From IMG/VR virus record IMGVR_UViG_3300029114_000023, positions 1 through 37,028 of that record: a stretch of DNA of 37,028 nt; one strand, 5' to 3'. The stretch comes from a virus. The translations under genes were made by a program, and so were the position numbers. Of this stretch, positions 2,371-7,808 are shown in pieces (within the stretch, counting starts at the first letter, position 1; each line of letters starts with the position of its first letter). The notes beneath the pieces were generated by a model. The model was not told the origin of the DNA. It ran no database searches and saw only the letters and a list, made by a program, of their open reading frames with translations.

Positions 2371-3681
2371 ATGGGATTCACAGATATATTTAAAGGAAAA
2401 CAGTATAAATCTGAGTTGGATACGCTGCAACAAAAATATGAAGATTTACAATCATTATTAACCCCGGAAATGCAAAATGCTTTTGCTTTACAAAACAAAA
2501 TCAGAGATTTAGACTCTATTATCCAGCAACGCAACCAGACAATTTCAGATTGTGATAACACTATAATCTCCAAAAATGCACAACTTGAAGACATTGAAAG
2601 ACATATCTCTGACAGGAAAACAGAACTTGTTTCCGTGGATGAAGAGATATTGGTTCAGGAATTCGGACTATATAAACCGCATTATGATTTCGCAAATGCA
2701 CTGGAGTATAAAGAAAAGCTATCCGAAATAAGGGCAAAGCAAAAAGCGATGATAAAGAATAAAACTGCTGTATCTGGCTTTACTTCATGGCAGGTTAATG
2801 GTAGTGCTTCGAAAGGAAAGAAAATGGTTTCCGACACACAAAAATTATTATTACGAGCGTTTAACAATGAATGTGATGAAGTTGTCGGGAAAGTAAAATA
2901 TACTAACTTTGATGCTTCTTTAAACCGGATAAATAAATCTGCGGAAACCATTTCCAAACTTGGTACAATAATGGGAATATCCATAAATCGCCCGTATCTG
3001 AATTTGAAGATTGAAGAGCTGAAACTAGCGTTTGAGTACCAGCAAAAGAAACAGGAAGAAAAGGAAGCTCAGAAAGCCGCTCGCGCCGAAATGCGGGAAG
3101 CTGCAAAACTTCAAAAAGAAATCGAAGCTCAACGAAAGAAAATAGAGAAAGAACAGACACACTATCAAACGGCCTATGAAAAATTGTTAAAACAATTAGA
3201 ATCCTCACCTGACGATGCTGATTTAATTCAGAAGAAATCCGAACTCGAAACTCAGCTTCAGGATATAGATAAAGCTATGAAAGATATTGATTACAGAGAA
3301 GCAAACCAGCGCGCTGGATATGTATATATAATTTCAAACATCGGCGCTTTTGGCGAGAATGTATACAAAATAGGTATGACGCGCCGTCTTGATCCACAAG
3401 ACCGAGTTGATGAACTTGGTGACGCATCCGTGCCATTCAACTTTGATGTACATGCTATGATATTCTCTGATGATGCGCCAGCTCTCGAAGCTGCGTTACA
3501 TAAAGCGTTTGAGGATAGAAAGCTTAACATGGTTAATACAAGACGAGAGTTCTTCAATGTTACATTAGACGAAATAAAAGAGGTTGTTAAAAAGAATTTT
3601 GACAAAACAGTAGAGTTCATCGATGTGGCTGATGCCGAGCAATATCGCATCAGCCAAAAAATGAAACATCAAAGTAAATAA
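2371..3681 (+). CDS. DUF4041-like coiled-coil protein with C-terminal T5orf172/MUG113 (GIY-YIG-superfamily) domain, 436 aa
   Basis: RBS GAAAGGGAAA. Central block LVQEFGLYKPHYDF..LLLRAFNNECDEVVGKVKY. A KE-rich coiled coil follows. C-terminal block GYVYIISNIGAFGENVYKIGMTRRLDPQDRVDELGDASVPFNFDVHAMIFSDDAPALEAALHKAF. Confidence 0.75.
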   Translation: MGFTDIFKGKQYKSELDTLQQKYEDLQSLLTPEMQNAFALQNKIRDLDSIIQQRNQTISDCDNTIISKNAQLEDIERHISDRKTELVSVDEEILVQEFGLYKPHYDFANALEYKEKLSEIRAKQKAMIKNKTAVSGFTSWQVNGSASKGKKMVSDTQKLLLRAFNNECDEVVGKVKYTNFDASLNRINKSAETISKLGTIMGISINRPYLNLKIEELKLAFEYQQKKQEEKEAQKAARAEMREAAKLQKEIEAQRKKIEKEQTHYQTAYEKLLKQLESSPDDADLIQKKSELETQLQDIDKAMKDIDYREANQRAGYVYIISNIGAFGENVYKIGMTRRLDPQDRVDELGDASVPFNFDVHAMIFSDDAPALEAALHKAFEDRKLNMVNTRREFFNVTLDEIKEVVKKNFDKTVEFIDVADAEQYRISQKMKHQSK

Positions 3682-3845: not shown

Positions 3846-4928
3846 ATGGCAACAGCAAAAAAATTACCATCAGGGTCATGGAGATGCCTAGTCTATTCCC
3901 ATACGGAGAATATTCGTCAGAAAGATGGTACTGTGAAGAAAAAGCGCATATACGAATCTTTTACCTGTGACGACCCAACAGCTAGAGGAAAGCGAAAATG
4001 TGAGCAGATAGCGGCTGAATGGGCGGCTAATAAAGATGCCGGAGTCACCGTGGAAAATATTACGCTAGGAGTTGCCTACGACCGATATATCGAGAGCAAA
4101 AATAAGACATTGTCTCCTGCTACAATCAGAGAATATAAACGGCAGCGTGAACGCAATCTCCCTACACTTATGCCATTAAAACTAAAAGATATCACCTGTG
4201 ACATGATCCAAATTGCAATAAATGAGGAGGCTTCCGGAAAATCTCCAAAAACCGTTAGGAATATCCACGGATTACTGTCGGCTGTTTTAGGTGTGTGTCG
4301 CCCAGACTTACAGCTTAATACTACTCTCCCTAAAAAAGTACGCCCCGAGCTGTATATTCCGTCTGATGAAGAAATAAAGAAACTGATAGAGTATGTAAAA
4401 AATGATGAGATGGAGATTCCTATCCTCCTTGCCGCATTCGGACCTATGAGGCGCGGTGAGATATGCGCTCTAGATTCATCTGATATAAAAGATGGGGTTG
4501 TCCATGTAAGTAAATCGATGGTTTTGGATTCTGAGCGTAATTGGGTAATAAAATCCCCGAAATCCTATTCAGGAGACAGGTATATCAGATTTCCGGATTT
4601 CGTCTTAAGTAAATTAAGCAAAAACGGACGAATAACAAGCCTAAACCCTTCCATGATCACGGATCGGTTTCGGGATATTCTGAAACGTACCGGCATACCT
4701 CATTTCCGTTTTCATGATCTTAGGCACTACTGCGCAAGCGTCCAACACGCGATAGGCATACCTGATGCGTATATTATGCAACGTGGAGGATGGGGAAGTG
4801 ACAGAGTTTTGAAAGAAGTTTACAGACATGCAATGGTAGACAAAACAAGTGATATGGATGCAAGGGCAAACGATTATTTTGAAAATATGCAACACGGTAT
4901 GCAACACGAAATTAAAAAAGCCCAGTAA
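3846..4928 (+). CDS. int: Tyrosine recombinase / phage integrase (360 aa)
   Basis: RBS AAAGGAAG. C-terminal catalytic region HFRFHDLRHYCAS ... GGWGSDRVLKEVYRH. attP lies immediately downstream. Confidence 0.9.
   Translation: MATAKKLPSGSWRCLVYSHTENIRQKDGTVKKKRIYESFTCDDPTARGKRKCEQIAAEWAANKDAGVTVENITLGVAYDRYIESKNKTLSPATIREYKRQRERNLPTLMPLKLKDITCDMIQIAINEEASGKSPKTVRNIHGLLSAVLGVCRPDLQLNTTLPKKVRPELYIPSDEEIKKLIEYVKNDEMEIPILLAAFGPMRRGEICALDSSDIKDGVVHVSKSMVLDSERNWVIKSPKSYSGDRYIRFPDFVLSKLSKNGRITSLNPSMITDRFRDILKRTGIPHFRFHDLRHYCASVQHAIGIPDAYIMQRGGWGSDRVLKEVYRHAMVDKTSDMDARANDYFENMQHGMQHEIKKAQ
4887..4907 (+). repeat. Two direct ATGCAACAC repeats in 12-bp phase (candidate integrase arm-type sites) inside the int 3' end
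   Basis: ATGCAACACggtATGCAACAC. The same 9-mer pair with the same spacing recurs at 5102-5122. Confidence 0.6.
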
Positions 4929-4944
4929 AACTAGGCTTTTGTAC

Positions 4945-4968
4945 TGCGGATGACAGGAATCGAACCCG
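4945..4968 (-). other. attP core: 3' fragment of a tRNA gene (T-loop, T-stem 3' strand, acceptor 3' strand)
   Basis: The - strand reads CGGGTTCGATTCCTGTCATCCGCA: T-loop TTCGATT, then CCTGT, then acceptor strand CATCCGC plus A. No matching 5' half, D arm or anticodon arm is nearby. Confidence 0.6.
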
Positions 4969-5101
4969 ATTCGATATTGTATAGTGTGATATCTATTTGA
5001 GTAACAGGCTATACAAATGCCCATTTTATAAGGTTTTTTCAGTGTCCCTTACCTATGCTTTGTATATTGTTTTATTCAGTTTTACAACATTTTGTAGAAC
5101 T

Positions 5102-5122
5102 ATGCAACACGAAATGCAACAC
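5102..5122 (+). repeat. Second pair of direct ATGCAACAC repeats (candidate arm-type sites, other attP arm), followed by an A10 run
   Basis: ATGCAACACgaaATGCAACAC then aaaaaaaaaa (5125-5134). Confidence 0.6.
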
Positions 5123-5156
5123 AAAAAAAAAACAACAAAGATGATGCAATATTTCA

Positions 5157-5178
5157 CCCCGGAGCTGATCCTCCGGGG
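5157..5178 (-). terminator. Stem-loop just downstream of the endolysin gene (end of the late programme)
   Basis: Perfect 8-bp stem CCCCGGAG ctgatc CTCCGGGG, 8 nt beyond the endolysin stop. The T-tract is weak on both strands. Confidence 0.5.
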
Positions 5179-5185
5179 AATGTTT

Positions 5186-6160
5186 TTAGTATAGTTGAAA
5201 TTTGTCAAACGCAACGCCGAAACATCCGGCATATCCGTCCTGACCCTTTCCCACTTCGTTATCGAACTGCCACGGATAGTAACCGCCGCCGATCGGAGCA
5301 ACTCTGTACTGTGCTTTTTGATAACCGTATTTTGCAACAATGTCCGCCGGAGTATCGTAATATACCTCTACGGCATCGATCACAGCTCCCGGATATCCAG
5401 CATAGCCGTTGTTTGCATCAGACCAGTTACATCCGGTTACGTAAGGTAACCATCCCTTGCCCTTTACATGGACGCGGTATTTTACAGTACCTTTATTAAC
5501 CTTTATCGCGATACCGGCGATTGTACGACCCGGAAGTCCTGCAAAATCAGACAGGTTATTCACAAAGGGCAGGATTGTTCCGTCGGTCAACATAACGCCA
5601 TAAGTAAACACAATGCCGGGATCGCCGGATGCTGCACTGCTTCCGCCTCCACTGACAACCGGAACATCCGGCAGCTTGTCCATTCCCATATACTCACGGA
5701 TTTTATTAATAAAATATGTTTTACAGCCAGATGTGCCCCCATGAATCTCTACAGATCTGTGCGGGCACGCTGTCGCGAATACCTCCTTGTGCAGCCGGAT
5801 TGTATTCGTGTTTGGAACGATACCGTACTGCTTACACTTCTGCGCCGCCAGCTTCAACGCATTCTCTTCATTTTTCTTAAAGATTTCCAAATCCCCCATA
5901 CTCTGACAGACCTCGATCGAATAATAGTTCCGGTTTCCGTCTGTCTGCCCGCAGTGCCATGCTGCGTAGGCATCATCTTCCGCATACAAGATCCCGTCAC
6001 TAGCTACATAGGCATGCGCAAATCCATTTTCCAGCGGATGCGTTTGCAGCCATTTTTTGTAAAACGCTGCGTTTGCATTTTGTGATCCTGCATCGTTGTG
6101 AATAAAAATTCCTCTCGGATTTCCACCTCTAAGTCCTGCTACTCCTCTACAAATACTCAT
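5186..6160 (-). CDS. Endolysin: N-acetylmuramoyl-L-alanine amidase (type-2 amidase/PGRP-like) with C-terminal wall-binding region, 324 aa
   Basis: IFIHNDAGSQNANAAFY, AHAYVASDG, AWHCG..NRNYYSIEVCQS and ACPHRS are typical amidase_2 blocks. RBS GAAAGGAGAAG. Confidence 0.85.
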   Translation of the reverse strand: MSICRGVAGLRGGNPRGIFIHNDAGSQNANAAFYKKWLQTHPLENGFAHAYVASDGILYAEDDAYAAWHCGQTDGNRNYYSIEVCQSMGDLEIFKKNEENALKLAAQKCKQYGIVPNTNTIRLHKEVFATACPHRSVEIHGGTSGCKTYFINKIREYMGMDKLPDVPVVSGGGSSAASGDPGIVFTYGVMLTDGTILPFVNNLSDFAGLPGRTIAGIAIKVNKGTVKYRVHVKGKGWLPYVTGCNWSDANNGYAGYPGAVIDAVEVYYDTPADIVAKYGYQKAQYRVAPIGGGYYPWQFDNEVGKGQDGYAGCFGVAFDKFQLY

Positions 6161-6183: not shown

Positions 6184-6197
6184 TTGCACCGGTGCAA
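6184..6197. promoter_or_regulatory. Perfect 14-bp palindrome TTGCACCGGTGCAA between the upstream terminator and the endolysin RBS
   Basis: Read directly. It is its own reverse complement. Confidence 0.4.
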
Positions 6198-6592: not shown

Positions 6593-7411
6593 TTACGCCA
6601 CCTCCTGATACACAACTTTGCATTTATTGATATTACCATTTGATAGCCGATACTCAATCATAGTAGGATAACCGTTCTCTTCAAGCCATTCCTTTGCTTT
6701 TTGTAATACAGAATCCTTGTACTGCACTGTGACACCATCATGCCCATTTCTACTATAAGCAGTTTTTACAATCTCTTCTGTGAAAACATCCAGCTTCTGA
6801 ATGATTGCGCTCATGGCTTTATCATGTGGTCTTCCACTCTCAGAGAAAATACCGAGTTCTTTTGCCATTGTAGTACAATCCCACAACTTAGGTACATCGG
6901 AAAGTACTGGAACTTTAACTGGATAACCATTATCTGAATAAATGCGAACAATCTCTGCTGCTATGTACTTGGAATCTACCCCTGCATCATGAAGAGCACC
7001 TTTGATGTTCTTTACCATTTGATTTACTGATGGAAGTTTTTCCTTCTTGTCTTCTTTCTTCTTTGGCACTTCATAATATCCTGTTTTACGGAGGGTTGGA
7101 AGAACCTCGTCTGTAACCCAGTCTGTAAATTTTTCTGCATCGGGTTTACGACTCTTAAATACCAACTTATATACTCCACTTTCTGTGAGAAAATTCTCAC
7201 CCGCGTTATTCAATTTTCGGAAGTCGGTTAAACCGACATCTGAATTTTTCACCTTGATAACTTGCTTTTTATTCATTTTACTCATGTGGTCTTTGACTGT
7301 GCTCATTGCCATATCTAAACACGCGCCAACGTGATAAGGATTAAATAAAACTTCTCCATTCAGTTCAAACGCTTCTACTTCATGTCCTTCAAAAATCATC
7401 AACTCATTCAT
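6593..7411 (-). CDS. Bro-N domain antirepressor-like protein (272 aa)
   Basis: ATG 7411 follows GAAAGGAG. FEGHEVEAFELNGEVLFNPYHVGACLDM...ESGVYKLVFKSRKPDAEKFTDWVTDEVLPTLRKTGYY matches the Bro-N pattern. Confidence 0.8.
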   Translation of the reverse strand: MNELMIFEGHEVEAFELNGEVLFNPYHVGACLDMAMSTVKDHMSKMNKKQVIKVKNSDVGLTDFRKLNNAGENFLTESGVYKLVFKSRKPDAEKFTDWVTDEVLPTLRKTGYYEVPKKKEDKKEKLPSVNQMVKNIKGALHDAGVDSKYIAAEIVRIYSDNGYPVKVPVLSDVPKLWDCTTMAKELGIFSESGRPHDKAMSAIIQKLDVFTEEIVKTAYSRNGHDGVTVQYKDSVLQKAKEWLEENGYPTMIEYRLSNGNINKCKVVYQEVA

Positions 7412-7529
7412 AATAAAAACTCCTTTCAAATTCGTTCTTGAAAGAAGCCTCATTCTGCATTATAATATTTACAGAAGGAAACTTCTTAGTTGAAGTACTC
7501 GGTTGTCTTGGTAGGATTGCGAGTACTTC

Positions 7530-7712
7530 TTATTTTTTTAGTTCTTCGTCGATTTTTTCATTAAGCCATTCTGATTTCGTCTTTTTCTGTTCAGATAATC
7601 TTTGTTCAAATTTCAACATTTTTTCTTTTTCCACAGCTACGCTAAACGTTTTTTGTTTTTCTCTTCTGGCTTTCATGTAATCGGCTCTACTTTTCTCCGC
7701 GATTATTCTCAC
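7530..7712 (-). CDS. Small ribbon-helix-helix-like (Arc/CopG-like) regulator, 60 aa; start uncertain (GTG 7712 or ATG 7676)
   Basis: KTFSVAVEKE reads as a beta strand. It is followed by two helices, KMLKFEQRLSEQ and TKSEWLNEKIDEEL. The gene sits directly behind a promoter with paired operators and ahead of the antirepressor. Confidence 0.5.
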   Translation of the reverse strand: MRIIAEKSRADYMKARREKQKTFSVAVEKEKMLKFEQRLSEQKKTKSEWLNEKIDEELKK

Positions 7713-7720
7713 CTCTTTTC

Positions 7721-7765
7721 GTTACGCGTTACATGTAATATACCATTGTTACGCGTAAAGTTCAA
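7721..7765 (-). promoter_or_regulatory. Promoter TTGAAC-17-TATATT with two GTTACGCGT(T/A)A operator-like repeats
   Basis: On the - strand the -35 is at 7765-7760 and the -10 at 7742-7737. Repeats at 7721-7731 and 7748-7758 each centre on ACGCGT. One fills the spacer and the other lies just downstream of the -10. Confidence 0.55.
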
Positions 7766-7808
7766 GAGGTTTTTCAAAATTTTTCCATCCTACCTATGGA
7801 ATTAAAAA

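Follow-up and report, generated by a model that had tools for sequence, protein, structure and literature searches.

A mobile late-operon cassette in phages of Clostridia with a putative Bro-N antirepressor, a probable ribbon-helix-helix regulator and a predicted antisense RNA, resembling the arc-sar-ant core of P22 immI

In the virus record IMGVR_UViG_3300029114_000023 (IMG/VR; positions 1 to 37,028, hereafter the window), from a phage of gut Clostridia, a minus-strand gene group lies between holin and endolysin. It consists of a small open reading frame (ORF), a gene for a Bro-N protein of 272 amino acids (aa) and a 111-aa ORF. A preliminary description, made from the letters of the window alone, had read this group as a unit resembling the immI region of phage P22. 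The locus raises the question of what such a unit is doing in a lysis cassette and how far its working resembles that of immI. The analysis favours, at a probability of about 60%, a mobile, self-regulated antirepressor cassette of the late operon, working like the arc-sar-ant core of P22 immI. The 37-kb window served as the reference stretch, with the cassette elements read on the minus strand. The comparison set comprised about 115 related loci, labelled L with a number where single loci have to be told apart. They came from 9 loci found by exact protein look-up, 80 viral contigs, 34 bacterial genome contigs (Lachnospiraceae, Oscillospiraceae, Clostridium and others) and two cultured Clostridioides difficile phages. 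The core elements of the cassette are listed below.

7769-7786, minus strand: A/T-rich tract GAAAAATTTTGAAAAACC, just upstream of the -35 hexamer, UP-element-like
7765-7737, minus strand: promoter TTGAAC-17-TATATT of sigma-A type, with a TGn-extended -10
7759-7748, minus strand: operator O1, TTTACGCGTAAC, inside the promoter spacer
7732-7721, minus strand: operator O2, GTAACGCGTAAC, 4 nucleotides (nt) past the -10, over the expected transcription start
7717-7712, minus strand: Shine-Dalgarno (SD) sequence AAGAGG of the small ORF
7530-7712, minus strand: small ORF for a basic protein of 57-60 aa, the proposed ribbon-helix-helix (RHH) autorepressor
7438-7466, plus strand: antisense promoter TTGAAA-17-TATAAT, scoring 11/12 and facing the small ORF
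7473-7541, plus strand: predicted cis-antisense RNA of about 66 nt
7473-7486, plus strand: SL1, a short hairpin of this RNA
7492-7529, plus strand: SL2, its terminator hairpin, with a stem of 10 base pairs (bp) and the loop UUGGUAGG
7530-7541, plus strand: T-run TTATTTTTTTAG, overlapping the stop codon of the small ORF
7418-7447, minus strand: predicted hairpin in the leader of the Bro-N mRNA
7411-6593, minus strand: gene of the 272-aa Bro-N protein, with Pfam and PHROG profile matches

The element that was absent from the preliminary description is a promoter with a terminator on the opposite strand, lying in the 118-nt spacer between the small ORF and the Bro-N gene. Within the scanned region, no site matches a promoter better than the antisense one at 7438-7466. 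In about 40 distinct viral loci this promoter scores 9-12/12, with a spacer of 16-18 bp (mostly 17) and frequently a TGn motif, and it was found again in most genome loci. The distance from this promoter to the stop codon of the small ORF is 56-92 nt, nearly all values being 65-80. The SL1-SL2-U-run architecture was present in 29 of 29 distinct lineages folded. Between them the stems differ considerably in sequence, and a loop motif (C)UUUGGU(A/C)GG is common to the folded antisense RNAs. Their folding z-score averages -4.4, and the antisense strand is the stabler one, by minimum free energy (MFE), in all 29 lineages. On the sense strand, no U-run follows the hairpin equivalent to SL2. G-U pairs account for 103 of 653 pairs in the antisense orientation versus 13 of 541 in the sense orientation, a difference to which strand composition may contribute.

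A covariance model was built from six close sequences and then searched against the loci, MAFFT with RNAalifold having mis-registered the stems. All 29 matches at E ≤ 0.5 lie on the antisense strand, including copies behind a second family of small RHH proteins described below. Compensatory changes occur in 10 of 10 stem pairs, and 97.3% of the cells are paired. In an alignment fitted to the structure of the covariance model, the covariation score is 0.883 versus 0.229 in shuffles (reached in none of 500) and does not exceed 0.123 when the pairing partners are slid by 1-3 columns. These features predict a conserved small cis-antisense RNA gene. An Rfam search of the window region (E ≤ 10, sar included) and of the C. 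difficile loci gave no family for the intergenic RNA, only CRISPR repeats nearby; hence, the predicted RNA is an analogue of sar and not a member of the sar family. An inverted repeat flanking the antisense -10 was considered as a protein operator and rejected. Its arms vary freely and are unrelated to O1 and O2 of the same locus, and an mRNA hairpin fits them better.

The leader of the Bro-N mRNA is itself structured. In the window, the anti-SD segment CTTCTTTCAA (7447-7438) pairs with the SD region TTGAAAGGAG, the SD being GAAAGGAGTT at 7427-7418; the same pairing can be written as CUUCUUUCAA (7447-7438) with UUGAAAGGAG. Hairpins that sequester the SD are predicted in most lineages. The sense leader of most lineages contains three predicted hairpins, namely the complement of SL2, a long one across the antisense -10 and the anti-SD/SD hairpin. 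Since the predicted RNA does not cover the SD, any effect on translation must be indirect. Binding of the small RNA was modelled by keeping its target region unpaired in 22 lineages. With the target sequestered in this way, the modelled probability that the SD is unpaired decreased from a mean of 0.30 to 0.06, and from 0.31 to 0.00 for the window sequence. It fell in 12 of the 22 lineages and rose in none; in the other 10 the shift was below 0.05, and in 8 of these the probability was no more than 0.04 even without the small RNA. The model suggests indirect translational repression by refolding of the leader. Duplex cleavage and transcriptional interference are equally possible modes of action of the small RNA.

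The promoter of the small ORF, TTGAAC-17-TATATT, had been pointed out before; it is present in the window and its position is conserved among the related loci. The promoter at the same position scores 10-12/12 in most of 36 distinct viral variants and at least 10/12 in 30 of 33 independent genome loci. The upstream layout is the same in nearly all lineages: a TTGACA-like hexamer, a 12-bp (pseudo)palindrome, a TATAAT-like hexamer, about 4 nt, a second palindrome, GGAGGTG and the start codon. The A/T-rich tract GAAAAATTTTGAAAAACC upstream of the -35, shared with L005-L009, L015-L025 and L047, may be an UP element. Directly upstream of this tract, at about 7781-7799 on the minus strand, lies a small hairpin, TTCCAT-AGGTAGG-ATGGAA, with a G-rich loop similar to the conserved antisense-RNA loop, UUGGUAGG; comparable hairpins stand before the promoter in several other lineages (upstream regions of L005, L015, L023 and L038).

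The two repeats given in the preliminary description, 7721-7731 and 7748-7758, are exact and can be extended to the 12-mers O2 and O1, the O1 core TTACGCGTAA being a perfect palindrome. With up to one mismatch allowed, the two promoter sites are the only matches in the window; the chance expectation is 0.58, and the observed count was reached in 0 of 100 shuffles. The CI protein of the phage was also considered as the regulator of the cassette and was rejected, the operator sequence being absent from the rest of the window. Within a locus, the best 10-mer match between O1 and O2 averages 9.0/10 and is at least 9/10 in 29 of 36 viral variants; between loci the mean is 7.2. A match of at least 9/10 was also found in 26 of 33 independent genome loci. 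From one lineage to another both copies change in step, and the palindromes are lineage-specific (e.g., GTAACGCGTAAC, GTAGCGCGCTAC, GTATTCAGATAC, GTAACTAGTTAC, GTTACATGTAAC, GTAACTCGTTAC, GTTGCTAGCAAC and GTTTCCCACAACC). In the upstream regions of L042 and L082 (about 3900-4000), one operator and part of the promoter have apparently been lost and a single palindrome stands directly before the SD; these copies may be decayed or differently regulated variants.

The class of operator tracks certain residues of the small protein. TFS goes with an ACGCGT core, QF(S/N)VS with CTAG, (D/E)FGV with GTAT..ATAC, AFHVE with CATG and AFAVE with TTCCCACAAC; the tracking is a correlation across lineages in which kinship is not factored in. 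In the protein alignment these residues form an xFxVx segment, where F23 and V25 are near-invariant and positions 22, 24 and 26 vary. This link between variable positions and operator class is what would be expected of an RHH dimer whose DNA-reading strand is residues 21-27. We infer that a dedicated regulator acts at the cassette promoter through O1 and O2.

The gene of the small protein is conserved. The protein is an end-to-end match to phrog_3896, a family of unknown function (E = 1.7e-25). A word-indexed protein search returned 157 homologues, from [Ruminococcus] torques, Faecalimonas, Sellimonas and uncultured phages, and an exhaustive profile search of 1.84 billion representatives returned 158 clusters at 50% identity. 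The earlier proposal of an RHH-like 60-aa ORF is borne out as regards a conserved gene; a match to a curated RHH model is missing, and the fold is made probable by hhalign. The link to known RHH proteins comes through sister cassettes, which carry a second family of small proteins ('MSPRTGRP...') in the same position; one of these passes the Pfam RHH_1 threshold and another is ParG-like. In an iterated hidden Markov model search of 1,477 ORFs, started from the RHH_1-positive seed, a member of the window family appeared in round 2 (E = 1.6e-4) and the window protein in round 3 (E = 8.8e-7). Aligned by hhalign, the window family and the RHH_1-containing family match over 40 columns in strand-helix-helix register, with P = 2.2e-5 and a probability of only 76%. 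Comparisons with single sequences (CopG, Arc and one sister-cassette RHH protein) always fell into the RHH register, at a weak P of about 0.01 (Arc P = 0.016). The small protein is probably an RHH protein, as judged by remote homology.

The start of the small ORF differs from both candidates offered before. GTG 7712 overlaps the SD AAGAGG, and a start at ATG 7676 would cut off the conserved IAEKSRADY, which is kept even in members with F in place of Met13. At the aligned start position, 7-8 nt past GGAGG, other lineages have ATG, GTG or TTG; about a third of the lineages, the window included, have ATA, ATC or ATT, and in L032 (3990-4030) an in-frame TAA stands directly before the ATC. The ATH codon at the aligned start in about one third of the members, together with the upstream TAA of L032, implies a non-canonical AUH start codon. 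In the window, the start is probably ATC 7703-7701, which gives a protein of 57 aa. An autoregulator would be well served by a weak initiation codon.

The cargo of the cassette is of antirepressor type. The 272-aa protein, named as a Bro-N protein from the outset, exceeds the curated Pfam cut-off for Bro-N (PF02498; 53.5 bits vs 25.6, E = 3.9e-14, residues 15-105) and matches phrog_2011, 'anti-repressor Ant', with E = 8.8e-43. Its Bro-N domain lies within residues ~1-115 and is followed by an uncharacterised C-terminal domain (~120-272). The protein is therefore annotated here as a putative antirepressor. Among 30 sampled genes directly downstream of the small ORF, about 27 are antirepressor-type. 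The domains found were Bro-N (9), Phage_pRha (7), AntA (6), ANT/KilAC (5), ORF6N (4) and P22_AR_N (1); an HNH/NUMOD4 endonuclease and a Lin1244-type gene were exceptions. The small gene is tied to a functional class of cargo and not to one family, which is the behaviour expected of a dedicated regulator.

The 111-aa ORF begins with an ATG 1 nt past the Bro-N stop codon. It is conserved and rare, with 8 homologues, and elsewhere it stands directly after antirepressor-type genes, namely AntA/ORF6C in L092 and Rha in L093 and L094. The Rha protein of L093 is 81% identical to the C-terminal 151 residues of the window Bro-N protein and differs in its N-terminal domain. The C-terminal domain and the 111-aa ORF travel together and the N-terminal module is shuffled, which suggests joint action of the domain and the ORF. 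Searches of Pfam, PHROG, PDB sequences, PADLOC and Foldseek assigned the 111-aa ORF neither to a family nor to a fold. Its AlphaFold model, made from 6 sequences, is poor, with a predicted local distance difference test score (pLDDT) of 66.6, and the best Foldseek match (E = 2.5) is uninformative.

The location inside a lysis cassette, at first described as unusual, recurs. The order holin-cassette-endolysin is found in the window's own phage (L010-L014) and in the unrelated L023 group, where holin and amidase are of other kinds and the cargo is AntA-type; in L032 the cassette stands immediately upstream of the holin and endolysin genes. Other copies have the portal/MuF genes on one side and the scaffold gene on the other (L001-L009, L025, L029, L047, L052 and L054) or lie upstream of the terminase genes (L033, L037-L046 and L051). 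In C. difficile phages the cassette is found between the tail chaperone and the tape-measure gene, among CRISPR arrays; the cultured phages CDMH1 (gp19/gp20) and phiCDKH02 (phiCDKH02_47/_48) carry it. Cassettes are co-oriented with the identifiable flanking genes and occupy four or more kinds of site, in late operons. Judged by these sites, the cassette appears to be a mobile 'moron' of the late operon.

The second RHH family, 'MSPRTGRP...', heads sister cassettes in L005 (5001-7822), L007, L009, L034, L035, L037, L052, L055, L089 and L093. Their layout consists of a promoter, two co-varying operators, the RHH gene, an antisense small RNA and an ORF6N or Rha gene, and they are often stacked in tandem, with up to three units behind the first cassette. 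C. difficile prophage copies were found in L057 (2563-3316) and L060 (2289-2581 and 5224-5516) among Rfam CRISPR-DR14 arrays, between an XkdN-like tail chaperone and the tape-measure gene. This C. difficile prophage region has been reported to hold type I toxin-antitoxin modules next to CRISPR arrays (PMC5961336).

The following mechanism is proposed. The strong sigma-A promoter at 7765-7737 would drive the genes of the small basic protein, the Bro-N protein and the 111-aa accessory protein. The small protein, a probable RHH dimer, would bind both 12-bp operators and switch off its own promoter, as Arc does; this negative autoregulation is suggested by the co-variation of operators and protein and by remote RHH homology. 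A constitutive convergent promoter on the plus strand (7438-7466) would make the antisense RNA of about 66 nt, complementary to the mRNA from the stop codon of the small ORF to a point some 60 nt before the Bro-N start. The Bro-N ribosome-binding site (RBS) would be held in the anti-SD hairpin, and the small RNA, on pairing with the upstream leader, would free a further anti-SD segment, so that the site would be locked. Cleavage of the duplex or transcriptional interference might act instead or in addition. The Bro-N protein, once made, would bind and inactivate a CI-type repressor, either the 138-aa helix-turn-helix (HTH) protein of the same phage or the repressor of a co-resident prophage; this step is proposed from family annotation only. 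In the former case the phage might have a second route of induction beside that of the ImmA protease, as the preliminary description had suggested.

Several observations weigh against this reading. The predicted RNA stops about 45 nt upstream of the Bro-N SD and does not cover the RBS, unlike sar and c4, and the covariation behind it was scored on an alignment fitted to the model's own structure. Promoter-like sites across the region number 13 versus 10.7 ± 3.1 in shuffles, which is not above chance, so that the promoter call rests on conservation in the related loci. Searches of Pfam, NCBIfam and PDB sequences did not identify the small protein as RHH, and neither the window protein nor 25 family members passed the threshold of Pfam Arc or another RHH family. 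The AlphaFold monomer, made from a 26-sequence alignment, shows a helix at residues 2-41 and another at 46-59 (mean pLDDT 76.5; the weakest block is residues 21-30, with 67), Foldseek found no match for this model, and the alignment of the two families has the 76% probability given above. In the literature no member of this Bro-N/C-domain family with a tested antirepressor function was found. The cassette contains no Mnt-like repressor, and its silence in a lysogen is unexplained. Two terminators stand between holin and endolysin, which leaves the transcription route of the endolysin gene unexplained.

The alternatives differ in the part of the cassette they reinterpret. The regulatory shell may be as described and the cargo may not be an antirepressor of the phage's own repressor; it might act on the repressors of other prophages, with cross-induction in polylysogens, or serve as a late DNA-binding regulator or an anti-defence factor. 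The cassette moves between unrelated phages and late-operon places, exchanging its N-terminal cargo domain and keeping the C-terminal domain and the 111-aa partner, which argues against tight co-evolution with the CI of one phage. One phage can carry a stack of several cassettes (L005), the CI/Cro switch region of the window lacks the operator, and the cargo bears the name 'antirepressor' through family annotation only. A precedent for action on other prophages' repressors is the coordination of prophages by antirepressors acting in trans, presented as established in PMC12629997 with reference to Lemire et al. 2011. On the opposite side, one sampled cargo has the N-terminal domain of the genuine P22 antirepressor, five have ANT/KilAC, and the layout copies that of P22 immI, the one system with a known antirepressor cargo. 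P22 Ant also acts on heterologous repressors. This alternative therefore overlaps with the proposed antirepressor cassette and does not exclude it, and as a separate explanation we find it doubtful.

It is improbable that the spacer holds no RNA gene and that its structure is a processing or stability element of the sense mRNA or a bidirectional terminator, with the antisense hexamers as by-products of the anti-SD/SD hairpin. The antisense -35, TTGAAA, is indeed the complement of the 5' arm of the SD hairpin, so its conservation could in part be a side-effect; stem covariation by itself is strand-neutral, and the G-U excess could partly reflect a G+T-rich antisense strand. The antisense -10, however, sits in the unpaired hairpin loop and is conserved with its 16-18-bp spacer (mostly 17) and frequent TGn, and the U-run follows the hairpin on the antisense strand only. 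Lineages without A-rich last codons add extra A residues past the stop codon. The strand preference of the covariance-model matches at E ≤ 0.5 and of the MFE in 29 of 29 lineages also argues for an RNA gene. A toxin-antitoxin-like or abortive-infection module, with the small RHH protein as antitoxin, the Bro-N/KilA-type protein as toxin and the antisense RNA as an extra brake, seems very improbable indeed. Type II toxin-antitoxin operons typically have an autoregulated two-gene layout with the RHH gene first and palindromic operators, and KilA-family proteins can be toxic on expression; the cassette fits this layout, and its cargo is under unusually tight multi-layer repression. However, the two genes are separated by 118 nt holding an RNA gene, with no translational coupling, and the three cassette proteins match no PADLOC defence model and no Pfam toxin family. 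The cargo families are DNA-binding and antirepressor types, and the small protein (~57 aa) aligns wholly to the RHH core, with no extra C-terminal region for toxin binding.

The accessory ORF and the flanks of the proposed antirepressor cassette comprise the following features.

8296-7817, minus strand: holin gene (Pfam Phage_holin_4_1, E = 3.8e-29)
7829-7808, minus strand: terminator-like hairpin over the holin stop codon, with a 9-bp stem and a T-run
6591-6256, minus strand: 111-aa accessory ORF, with homologues in other contigs
6247-6218, minus strand: terminator-like hairpin closing the cassette before the endolysin gene, with a 13-bp stem and a T-run
6160-5186, minus strand: endolysin gene (Pfam Amidase_2, E = 5.9e-17)

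All elements that the preliminary description had placed between holin and endolysin were found at their coordinates, and its view of a self-contained minus-strand unit ending in a terminator agrees with the hairpins that flank the unit at 7829-7808 and 6247-6218. The former is the upstream boundary and insulator of the cassette. The 104 nt from the holin stop codon to the small ORF contain only the terminator, the UP-like tract and the promoter; neither a divergent ORF nor a divergent promoter was found there. A megablast search of the region against 50,697 phage records returned one short fragment only. Just past the cassette terminator, at 6184-6197 and 24 nt upstream of the endolysin start codon, there is a perfect 14-bp palindrome, TTGCACCGGTGCAA, which occurs once in the window and could be part of the endolysin gene's own control region.

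The lysogeny module of the window contains a 138-aa HTH_3/CI-type repressor (1473-1889), an M78 ImmA/IrrE peptidase (1894-2325), a Cro-like HTH protein (1259-1074) and an integrase (3846-4928). Hence, the repressor and the ImmA protease at 1894-2325 suggested earlier are both present, as a CI-like HTH protein and an M78 peptidase. Between the ImmA peptidase and the integrase, a 436-aa protein with DUF4041 and T5orf172 is encoded at 2371-3681 on the plus strand. It is a full-length match to the anti-phage defence protein of PD-Lambda-1 (PADLOC, E = 4.5e-160) and, by this homology, appears to be a prophage-borne defence gene adjoining the lysogeny module. The integrase gene (plus strand, ending at 4928) and the endolysin gene (minus strand, ending at 5186) converge on a G+C-rich hairpin at 5157-5178. 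This convergence implies that the window is a circular or excised form of the phage and not the end of an integrated prophage; attP is expected in the gap 4928-5186.

The control of an antirepressor by a small repressor and an antisense RNA is textbook knowledge for P22 and P1. What the present locus would add is the circuit logic of immI, without detectable homology, in phages of Lachnospiraceae, Oscillospiraceae and Clostridioides difficile. The literature searched yielded no account of the cassette, and the records of C. difficile phages annotate its genes as 'hypothetical protein' and 'BRO/Bro-N protein'. The study of C. difficile phage phiCDKH01 describes early-region antirepressors under an XRE repressor, an arrangement unlike the cassette. 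The examples listed in a 2025 review of phage-encoded small RNAs, namely sar, c4 and 24B_1, are all Gram-negative (PMC12197685), and lysogeny control in gut Clostridia is poorly understood (PMC11172241). If the proposed reading is true, a new small-RNA family is added to phage regulation, prophage induction and cross-talk in gut Clostridia gain a testable handle, and orthogonal repressor/operator pairs become available for studies of RHH-DNA recognition or as genetic parts in anaerobes.

A wider reading can be put forward tentatively, at somewhat less than an even chance. It holds that the cassettes form a Clostridia-wide plug-in family that has re-created, or very distantly inherited, arc-sar-ant with its own RHH/operator pairs and a new class of leader-refolding RNA, and that this family could be the main way in which co-resident gut prophages, including those of C. 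difficile, detect and induce each other. The RHH/operator pairs would then be a natural library of a recognition code, with at least eight operator classes. The RNAs would form a class of cis-antisense RNAs of ~60-80 nt that silence an antirepressor at a distance, and cassettes would be stacked and swapped between phages.

Among known systems, gp19 and gp20 of phage CDMH1 and phiCDKH02_47 and _48 are direct homologues of the cassette, with the same order, operators, antisense promoter and terminator. Their small protein is about 54% identical to that of the window, and they differ in location, lying between the tail chaperone and the tape-measure gene and not in a lysis cassette. Compared with the RHH autorepressors Arc, Mnt, CopG and ParG, the small protein shares a length of about 45-60 aa, the xFxVx segment at the presumed strand position followed by two helices, the conserved K-T-K-(S/T) turn before the second helix and the short palindromes over its own promoter. 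It differs in scoring below the threshold of every curated RHH model, in a fold that the monomer prediction does not confirm and in the conserved N-terminal extension SRA(D/E)Y(M/F)K.RR of the window family.

In immI of P1 and P7 (c4-icd-ant1/2), synthesis of the antirepressor is held down by c4, a 77-nt RNA acting on the ant mRNA (PMC12197685), and this control by a small RNA is what the cassette has in common with it. Unlike the cassette RNA, however, c4 arises by processing of the same transcript, and its pairing is at the RBS. The P1/P7 region has no RHH autorepressor with paired operators and no sequence relationship to the cassette.

In P22, ant belongs to a late-operon moron and is under the control of mnt, arc and sar (PMC2629481), and sar is an RNA of 68/69 nt that blocks ant translation (PMC12197685). 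The cassette resembles P22 immI, which comes nearest to it among the known systems, as an independently expressed late-operon moron whose first gene encodes a small, probable RHH autorepressor and whose second gene is of the antirepressor class. As in P22, operators lie over its promoter at the spacer and the transcription start, and a convergent gene for a predicted antisense RNA of about 66 nt (68/69 nt in sar) lies between the regulator and the antirepressor gene. The differences are of several kinds. No sequence homology was detectable; the small protein lacks a match to Pfam Arc (PF03869) and the small RNA a match in Rfam. The cargo of the window is Bro-N and that of P22 is P22_AR_N/C, with P22_AR_N found in 1 of the 30 sampled cargo genes. 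The cassette has no Mnt-like second repressor and no divergent promoter, and the same site occupies both operator positions. The cassette RNA stops about 45 nt upstream of the SD, whereas sar covers the RBS. The hosts of the cassette are Clostridia, Gram-positive anaerobes, and those of P22 are Enterobacteria. The original comparison with P22 immI is thus upheld for the architecture; 'Arc-like' applies only in the sense of a probable RHH fold, and, with no Mnt-like second repressor, the cassette falls short of a full immI. By descent, so far as this is detectable, it is no member of the immI family, and its layout indicates that it probably works like immI.

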